DNA from: Spirochaetia bacterium
GTDB taxonomy: Bacteria > Spirochaetota > Spirochaetia > G963692905
Reading direction: 5' to 3'
Length of the DNA: 64,000 nucleotides
Assembly (NCBI GenBank): GCA_965261245.1
Contig: OZ253446.1
Coordinates: forward strand, 2,069,587-2,133,586
In this document: positions 11,520-11,999 of the stretch, piece by piece
How the letters are laid out: each line of letters begins with the position of its first letter
Numbering within the stretch: position 1 is the stretch's first letter
Translations under genes and position numbers: made by a program
The notes under the pieces: model-generated
What the model saw: the letters and a program-made list of their open reading frames with translations, nothing else
What the model was told of the DNA's origin: nothing
Databases searched by the model: none

Positions 11520-11999
11520 TTATACGATTTTAATTTTGCTGATCACTGTATCTGCTTCTATGGCGCTGTCGTATTTGTTATTTTTCTTAAACTGTTTGTT
11601 GGTCTCTGGTTGCAACTTTCTAATGAATATGCGTTCTAAAGCATACACGCGGGCATATTCTTTTTCAAATATTCCGTTTTCAAAAACCAGGAATGCAATA
11701 TATGATTTTAAGAATTTTTTCCTTATCTCTTCATATCCTTTTGGCTCATCTCTAAATATCGGTTGCAGTCGATGCCCTATTGCCCGCAAGTGCAAACGTA
11801 CTGAAGTTGCTTTGCCTATATATAGCGGTTGTCCTTTTTTCGTGAAGTGAAAATATAACCCTCTTTCAAATCCGCCGGCAGGTATAATATCCTCGCCGTA
11901 GGTTAACAATCCCAGCGGTTTTTTTGACGTTTTTGATTTTATGATTTCGATAGCGTCTGATATTTTTTTGTTGGCAATTTCTTTGTAATCTATTCGCAT
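11520..11999 (-). CDS. GIY-YIG nuclease-like protein, in a low-GC segment
   Basis: GLY-x10-YIG spacing (GLYFHFTKKGQPLYIGKA) with downstream Arg and Glu residues; AT-rich coding sequence. Confidence 0.5.
   Translation of the reverse strand: MRIDYKEIANKKISDAIEIIKSKTSKKPLGLLTYGEDIIPAGGFERGLYFHFTKKGQPLYIGKATSVRLHLRAIGHRLQPIFRDEPKGYEEIRKKFLKSYIAFLVFENGIFEKEYARVYALERIFIRKLQPETNKQFKKNNKYDSAIEADTVISKIKIV

Follow-up and report, generated by a model that had tools for sequence, protein, structure and literature searches.

The 64,000-nucleotide stretch of Spirochaetia bacterium contig OZ253446.1 analyzed here (the window) carries, on its reverse strand, a 159-codon gene that we consider, with moderate confidence, to encode an active, horizontally acquired, free-standing GIY-YIG endonuclease, that is, a selfish-type accessory gene and not a core repair enzyme. 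The protein belongs to a new, very rare, and unnamed GIY-YIG family on the UvrC/homing-endonuclease branch of a well-known superfamily. Its accessory and foreign character is supported by low GC content, the sparseness of the family, gene neighborhoods that are not shared, and presence or absence among sibling strains.

Homologues were collected in two ways: a single-sequence HMMER pass covered 1.84 billion cluster representatives, which stand for about 15 billion proteins, and a word-seeded profile search covered 5.8 billion clusters. The HMMER pass returned P0001, a sibling sequence with 97% identity, together with P0005 (160 aa), P0012 (153 aa), and P0011 (125 aa), and the profile search contributed one more relative, P0016 (141 aa), for a total of six 90%-identity clusters. 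The other listed HMMER matches, which are long and split into multiple stretches, are attributed to low-complexity, lysine-rich sequence. Scans of GTDB representative genomes, IMG/VR, and JGI metagenome contigs for the family motif revealed no relatives. The six sequences can be aligned from end to end, have a family length of 141-160 aa and a conserved start, and share the invariant positions G47, Y49, F50, I61, G62, K63, S66, L69, R72, L121, E122, F125, I126, P131, N134, and K138. The assigned start codon is backed by three distant homologues that begin at the aligned position with the pattern M-(R/A)-(I/V)-x-(Y/H)-x-E-(I/V).

In the GIY-YIG superfamily, the two motif boxes lie 10-11 residues apart, a conserved arginine is located in helix 1, and a glutamate, which binds the metal in UvrC and I-TevI, in helix 3. 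An earlier note, made from the DNA letters, had called the gene a GIY-YIG-like nuclease on the basis of a GLY-x10-YIG spacing followed by Arg and Glu residues. The spacing proved exact (G47-L48-Y49, ten residues, Y60-I61-G62), and the downstream residues correspond to R72 and E122, which align with the catalytic R39 and E76 of UvrC and are invariant across the family. The motif is regarded as being beyond chance because the residues around it follow a pattern conserved throughout the family and the predicted GIY-YIG fold that contains it is a confident one. The call of a nuclease therefore stands, since the family profile, the complete set of catalytic residues, and the predicted fold concur.

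Curated models recognize the protein weakly or not at all. In Pfam, it had no match at E ≤ 10, so the gathering threshold of PF01541 is not reached, and a PHROGs search returned only noise. The NCBIfam UvrC model (TIGR00194) matched residues 46-143 with 21.5 bits (E 7.8e-5; cut-off 285.45), covering only model positions 12-95, and the NCBIfam Cho model scored 12.1 bits against a cut-off of 367; across the family, such weak matches occur in five of the six members for UvrC and in three for Cho. With phmmer, the single protein found UvrC N-terminal domains among the PDB sequences at E ~0.06. The profile search that the earlier note had proposed as a check thus passed no curated threshold, yet the six-member family profile, when compared with the PDB by hmmsearch, matched only UvrC GIY-YIG domains, covering the whole domain, with 1yd6 at E 2e-4.

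An hhalign comparison of the family with residues 16-93 of Thermotoga maritima UvrC (probability 89.8%, E 1.8e-6) pairs Y49 with Y19, Y60 with Y29, K63 with K32, R72 with R39, H76 with Y43, E122 with E76, and N134 with N88. The paired UvrC positions are those mutated in deposited UvrC structures, according to their titles (Y19F, Y29F, Y43F, N88A), and the catalytic set (Y49, Y60, K63, R72, H76, E122, and N134) is complete in the window protein. A conserved C-terminal asparagine, known as motif E, marks the UvrC+ lineage, which comprises UvrC, Cho, homing endonucleases, and restriction enzymes, and is lacking in the Slx1 lineage (PMC1564403). As N134 is invariant, the family falls on the UvrC+ branch and not on the Slx1/YhbQ branch.

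Structure prediction, also proposed in the earlier note, agrees with this assignment. The AlphaFold2 (AF2) model from the six-sequence alignment, with a predicted local distance difference test (pLDDT) of 86 and a predicted template-modeling (TM) score of 0.84, has a GIY-YIG-type core at residues 46-129, with the order strand-strand-helix-helix-strand-helix that characterizes the superfamily. The top eight Foldseek matches in the PDB are all UvrC domains, and those in BFVD are weak (E ≥ 2e-3, TM ≤ 0.46) and confined to the core. The core is preceded by a family-specific N-terminal extension, modeled at pLDDT 86-98 as a strand (residues 2-4) and helices at 5-8, 13-22, and 34-42; this extension would pack on the core and may help to bind DNA. 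The protein ends 25 residues past N134, and only a 19-residue tail lies beyond the catalytic domain. Alignment, model, and Pfam agree on the absence from the protein of the C4, UvrB-binding, EndoV, and HhH modules, and the same sources plus PHROG indicate the absence of a linker or C-terminal DNA-binding modules such as NUMODs, helix-turn-helix (HTH) domains, or zinc fingers.

These features suggest a product that would act in the cytoplasm as a small, metal-dependent DNA endonuclease of the GIY-YIG superfamily and may cleave or nick DNA through the single-metal GIY-YIG mechanism. By analogy with T4 EndoII and R.Eco29kI, DNA binding would be supplied by the N-terminal extension, probably together with oligomerization. 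The gene itself would be a horizontally acquired, free-standing, selfish-type element riding in a recombination-prone accessory region, and the nuclease may itself stimulate recombination there.

Base composition sets the gene apart from its host, as the earlier note had remarked: the open reading frame (ORF) has 36.2% GC and 36% GC at third codon positions (GC3), compared with 56.8% GC for the 64-kb window and a GC3 of 67-79% for housekeeping neighbors (pyruvate kinase, the sigma-54 activator, and the leucyl- and methionyl-tRNA synthetases). Equally low GC occurs in only 0.25% of 480-nt intervals across the 64 kb, all of them in one other segment at ~24961-25800. More broadly, GC3 is ~0.36-0.52 from 7744 to 12000 and ~0.7 in the flanks. 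The low GC content recurs elsewhere in the family, where all homologues lie 8-19 GC points below their own locus. As a separate observation, the sole other segment of the window that is as AT-rich as the nuclease gene, 24736-26034 on the forward strand (GC 40%, with a 480-nt minimum of 35% at ~25141), encodes a protein of 432 aa in which an N-terminal FRG domain is combined with TPR repeats, and may likewise be an acquired gene.

The neighborhoods of the distant homologues are all different, containing, respectively, Lpt genes; a short-chain dehydrogenase/reductase (SDR); Bax1-I; and an IS1595 transposase with an OGG-like gene, ThyX, and GmrSD_C. A conserved partner gene was ruled out, given that an all-against-all BLASTP comparison of the ORFs around every homologue found the nuclease alone to be shared; the earlier note, which saw no partner gene in the window, was correct in this respect. 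In the last of these loci (L003), P0011 lacks the N-terminal ~22 residues and starts 52 nt past the IS1595 transposase (L003 9320-10378), so it is probably truncated at its 5' end, to judge from this arrangement. The idea that the nuclease travels as a passenger of IS1595 was ruled out, as the insertion sequence (IS) appears to truncate the gene.

To describe the locus across strains, six sibling haplotypes were compared, namely, the window and five contigs from one ENA sample (ERZ26694059), using blastn and MAFFT alignments, and the shared block was derived from the window, L001, L086, and L089. The nuclease gene is present in four of the six haplotypes, always at the pyruvate-kinase side of the variable region, and the cargo downstream of it varies, diverging between strains beyond 11444. 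L001 has the gene order of the window with the IS element absent; L086 has the same ORF and the 70-aa ORF (orf70), followed by DUF6804 and another Cys-rich protein of 605 aa; and L089 retains only the signal-peptide start of orf70, followed by a PEGA lipoprotein and, ~4 kb further on, a CRISPR-Cas locus. The two haplotypes without the gene, which also lack the cargo, differ by kilobases with no clean insertion: between the same flanks, L087 has an IS and 1.3 kb that includes a ~100-nt repeat, and L088 has 3.1 kb in which an IS1595-like remnant is accompanied by other ORFs. A mobile module occupying two loci was considered and dropped, because the upstream flank in L089 is the same sequence with an insertion of ~53-65 nt, as seen by local alignment. 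Similarly, an origin as a passenger of the window's IS481-like element was ruled out by its absence from L001 and L086, and a tRNA-integrated island was ruled out by the position of the variable region 5' of tRNA-Met and by the lack of any att-like repeat seen there.

Comparison of the alleles indicates that the gene is maintained. Within catalytic core codons 45-140, we determined six synonymous and no non-synonymous differences, a pattern with a neutral chance of ~9e-5, which argues that the gene is not a relic. The N-terminal 44 codons are less constrained than the core (five non-synonymous and five synonymous differences), and the whole-gene ratio of non-synonymous to synonymous polymorphism (pN/pS) is ~0.16 between the window and L089. 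The allele of L001 is a mosaic, resembling L086 and L089 at codons 18-44 and the window over the remainder. From position 11869 down to 8593, the window and L001 differ at 2 of 3,277 positions, amid flanks that are 92-94% identical; this 3.3-kb near-identical tract ends in the nuclease ORF (~codon 44) and in the repeat-rich 403-aa gene, and reflects either recent recombination or gene flow, or an assembly artifact. The mosaic alleles and the near-identical tract imply frequent recombination at and around the gene, with the caveat that chimeras are possible in low-coverage contigs from one sample.

Table 1. Features of the nuclease gene and its locus in the 64-kb window
Feature	Position	Strand	Basis or remark
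Nuclease ORF	11520..11999	-	Complete, ATG to stop, 159 aa
N-terminal extension, codons 1-45	11865..11999	-	Family-specific; AF2 and conserved start motif, invariant T33
GIY-YIG catalytic core, codons 46-140	11580..11864	-	hhalign, hmmsearch vs PDB
C-terminal tail, codons 141-159 and stop	11520..11579	-	No further domain; short helix 144-148 in model
Y49 codon	11853-11855	-	
Y60 codon	11820-11822	-	
K63 codon	11811-11813	-	
R72 codon	11784-11786	-	
H76 codon	11772-11774	-	
E122 codon	11634-11636	-	
N134 codon	11598-11600	-	
Promoter-like site TAGACA-17-TATTAT	12006..12034	-	Promoter scan, consensus match only
Block common to the four ORF-bearing haplotypes	11444..12078	-	79 nt upstream, ORF, 16-nt spacer, first ~60 nt (signal peptide) of next gene
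orf70, signal-peptide-like N-terminus	11291..11503	-	70 aa; 16-nt gap after nuclease gene
Low-GC cargo: 571-aa and 403-aa Cys-rich repeat secreted proteins, 167-aa ORF	7744..11294	-	Pfam; GC3 0.38-0.41
IS element (rve_3/HTH_32 transposase 12325-13323)	12278..13462	-	Between nuclease gene and pyruvate kinase
Pyruvate kinase	13791-15602	+	Near conserved flank of variable region
tRNA-Met	7420..7494	-	Far conserved flank of variable region

Several points weigh against an active, horizontally acquired nuclease. No curated model reaches its threshold, and a Pfam GIY-YIG match is found in only one of the six family members (E 0.0014). The AF2 model was built from an alignment of six sequences, and the single-sequence model is poor (pLDDT 43). 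Two members, P0011 and P0016, have Arg at the second motif Tyr (Y60) and Gln at H76, so not all family members need be active. The strain contigs all come from one ENA sample with 1.4-5.2x long-read coverage, and the mosaic and presence/absence patterns could partly be assembly chimeras. The ORF of L086, on a 2.08x long-read contig, has a homopolymer indel (a 1-nt loss in an A7 run); a pseudogene was rejected for this copy, as the ORF is otherwise identical to the intact one of L089 and the contig is of low coverage, and a sequencing error is the likeliest cause of the loss. Low GC is also not limited to foreign genes in this organism: the gene at 17500-19254 on the forward strand, a fusion of HisZ-like (tRNA-synt_His) and HisG parts, has 45% GC, unusually low for a housekeeping gene of this genome, and low GC alone is therefore no proof of foreign origin. 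Moreover, neither flanking repeats nor a second locus were found that would point to mobility of the gene itself, and no relatives were found in phages, IMG/VR, or plasmids (single-protein IMG/VR scans; tblastn against INPHARED phages and PLSDB plasmids).

Among the alternatives, a role in host DNA repair holds up best, and we still regard it as unlikely. The protein would then be a structure-specific nuclease, either a trimmed UvrC/Cho paralogue or an Slx1/YhbQ-type analogue, incising damaged or branched DNA and possibly recruited by repair proteins. Its nearest relatives in both sequence and structure are indeed the N-terminal domains of UvrC and Cho, the core is under purifying selection, the L003 homologue adjoins an OGG-like glycosylase and ThyX, and UvrC-derived short forms that lack the C-terminal segment and carry an N-terminal extension have already been described (Bacillus-1/2, PMC1564403). 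However, sibling strains L087 and L088 lack the gene, which is extremely sparsely distributed and has a foreign composition in every host, and the protein has no UvrB-binding, C4, or EndoV/HhH modules. Nor is there a conserved repair-gene neighborhood, and the L003 copy appears to be 5'-truncated beside its IS1595 transposase.

The island setting would also suit a single-gene anti-phage or anti-plasmid defense nuclease, acting as a restriction-like or abortive-infection effector, which we judge to be quite improbable. The window protein has no match in PADLOC (PADLOC-DB 2.0), even at E ≤ 10; two family members, P0012 and P0005, match the 301-position PDC-S14 profile weakly (20.5 and 11.9 bits), and in these matches only profile positions 50-123, the shared GIY-YIG core, are covered. 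Domains for sensing or for reading modifications were not found, the immediate cargo in the window consists of secreted Cys-rich proteins and not of defense genes, and no immunity gene occurs in any context. Type II GIY-YIG restriction enzymes (Eco29kI, Cfr42I, Hpy188I) have an adjacent cognate DNA methyltransferase. None was found among the neighbors in the window or at any homologue locus, so the protein is not a type II restriction-modification enzyme.

There is a slim chance that the nuclease drives the hypervariable locus that it borders, cutting a site at or near the locus in genomes that lack the gene or carry another allele. Repair from the donor copy would then co-convert adjacent DNA, which would explain the conserved block of nuclease and signal peptide joined to differing cargo in sibling strains, the clustering of breakpoints inside and just after the ORF, and the 3.3-kb near-identical tract amid more divergent flanks. 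If true, this would be a homing system of a bacterial chromosome, intron-less and of a single domain, by which cassettes of surface or secreted proteins are shuffled.

A decaying or non-catalytic remnant, whether a homing-endonuclease relic, as the earlier note had suggested as one option, or a GIY-YIG fold that now binds nucleic acids without cutting them, appears highly improbable. Such a fate would fit the missing DNA-binding domain of classical GIY-YIG homing endonucleases, the loss of the second Tyr and of H76 in two family members, the frameshift in L086, and the apparent truncation in L003. In the window protein, however, all catalytic positions are intact, the protein is of full length for a family whose length and start are conserved, and the core differs between alleles by synonymous changes only; the frameshift in L086, as noted above, is most simply a sequencing error. 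The suggestion of a relic is thus not borne out.

Finally, that the nuclease and the downstream secreted Cys-rich genes form one operon, for example, with a locus-specific nuclease driving cassette exchange, is extremely improbable: orf70 lies on the same strand across a short gap with no terminator-like site between, the same signal-peptide start follows the gene in all four haplotypes, Cys-rich secreted proteins are part of the cargo of the window, L001, and L086, and recombination breakpoints cluster in and just past the ORF, but the idea finds no support outside this lineage, such neighbors being absent around all four distant homologues, the cargo of L089 is different (PEGA lipoprotein and CRISPR-Cas), and ordinary homologous recombination, or chimeric assembly at low coverage, could account for the breakpoints.

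Upstream of the gene, the promoter-like site ends 6 nt before the ATG and lies in the upstream block kept in all four strain copies; if functional, this putative promoter would yield an mRNA with a very short leader or none. A variable spacer separates it from the IS element, which has terminal inverted repeats at 12279-12291 and 13420-13432 and is found at this position in this strain only, being absent from L001 and L086. Downstream, orf70 shares 4 nt with the start of the following gene and does not recur as a partner across the nuclease family, and the 571-aa and 403-aa proteins have Dickkopf_N / DUF7107 matches in Pfam.

Other observations concern the mobile and repeated sequences of the region. 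The IS copies at 12278-13462 and 55767-56956 belong to the same family (rve_3, with similar terminal repeats 'TGTTTAACCTC...'), and their sequences differ; the copy at 55767-56956 is 100% identical to the IS that fills the nuclease-less hotspot in L087. The IS1595-like remnant in the nuclease-less hotspot of L088 (~1497-2235) is 70% identical to the IS1595 of L003. A 21-nt unit (CTTCGACAAGCTCAGGGCAAG) occurs three to four times in tandem upstream of pyruvate kinase (13628-13707), where the alignment with L001 is gapped. An intergenic repeat of ~100 nt occurs in the window at 7560-7662, 23658-23759, and 33934-34039, in copies that are 89-96% identical, and elsewhere in L001 (14369-14524), L002 (1659-1761), L087 (~5533-5638), and L088 (~1170-1277). 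In its predicted fold, a G6/C6 hairpin comes after nested hairpins (consensus -39 kcal/mol, with a single covarying pair). No match was found in Rfam, and the repeat could be a REP/MITE-like element (repetitive extragenic palindrome or miniature inverted-repeat transposable element) or a small RNA. In L002, the distant nuclease homologue is followed after 0.8 kb by a copy of the repeat, which suggests that the L002 organism is related to that of the window.

Large secreted proteins with Cys-rich repeats ('SDGSAGSAC...C.G.L.C') are encoded in the window at 8343-9554, 9579-11294, 43591-46041, and 47164-50133, and also in L086 at 5775-7592. With their Dickkopf_N / DUF7107 matches, low GC3, and content that varies between strains, they are an expanded, fast-changing secreted or surface family in this organism. 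The CRISPR-Cas locus of L089 (4417-9745), ~4 kb downstream of the nuclease, consists of an adaptation module (Cas4, Cas2, Cas1) and a Csx12-type large effector; beyond the nuclease block, L089 has no match in the 64-kb window, so this module is not part of the window.

A free-standing, selfish-type nuclease of this kind belongs to a familiar enzyme class and is not a new kind of system. What it contributes is a small unnamed family of six clusters to the GIY-YIG superfamily, one that no Pfam, NCBIfam, PHROG, or PADLOC model recognizes at threshold, in which selection preserves, as an accessory gene, a UvrC-like core that carries nothing more than a 45-residue N-terminal extension. From the family alignment, a new profile could be built to keep such genes from being annotated as hypothetical, and the 159-aa single-domain enzyme represents a compact candidate for the biochemistry of minimal GIY-YIG DNA recognition.

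In comparison with known systems, the best match in both sequence and structure is the N-terminal GIY-YIG domain of UvrC and Cho (T. maritima 1ycz, B. caldotenax 1yd6), with which the window protein shares the fold, the GIY/YIG tyrosines, the Lys after YIG, the Arg, the Glu, and the C-terminal Asn, as well as the signature 'LE..(L/F)I.K..P.YN'. Unlike UvrC, it lacks the C4, UvrB-binding, EndoV, and HhH modules and carries the 45-aa N-terminal extension, and whereas UvrC is universal, the window gene is accessory and patchy. The Bacillus-1/2 short forms (Dunin-Horkawicz et al. 2006, PMC1564403) likewise combine a UvrC-like core with loss of the C-terminal segment and an N-terminal extension; compared by description, they show no sequence relationship beyond the core, and their hosts are Bacillales, a different lineage from that of the window. 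The leucyl-tRNA synthetase of the window is at most 60% identical to that of any GTDB representative, with uncultured Spirochaetaceae as the best matches, which places the host only loosely. Slx1/YhbQ-type stand-alone proteins are also small prokaryotic GIY-YIG proteins without auxiliary domains (PMC1564403), but their lineage lacks the C-terminal Asn motif, whereas N134 is invariant in the window family, and the window protein has no PF01541 match. The GIY-YIG homing endonucleases (I-TevI, 1ln0) and the Seg type of T4-like phages (PMC2988022) have a linker and DNA-binding modules that are absent here, and the window gene, in contrast to theirs, is not associated with an intron and resides on a bacterial chromosome and not in a phage genome. 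The nearest architectural analogues are T4 endonuclease II (DenA, 2wsh) and R.Eco29kI (3mx4), single-domain enzymes with terminal extensions and an identity of 18-19%, from which the window gene differs in having neither a phage context nor a cognate methyltransferase.

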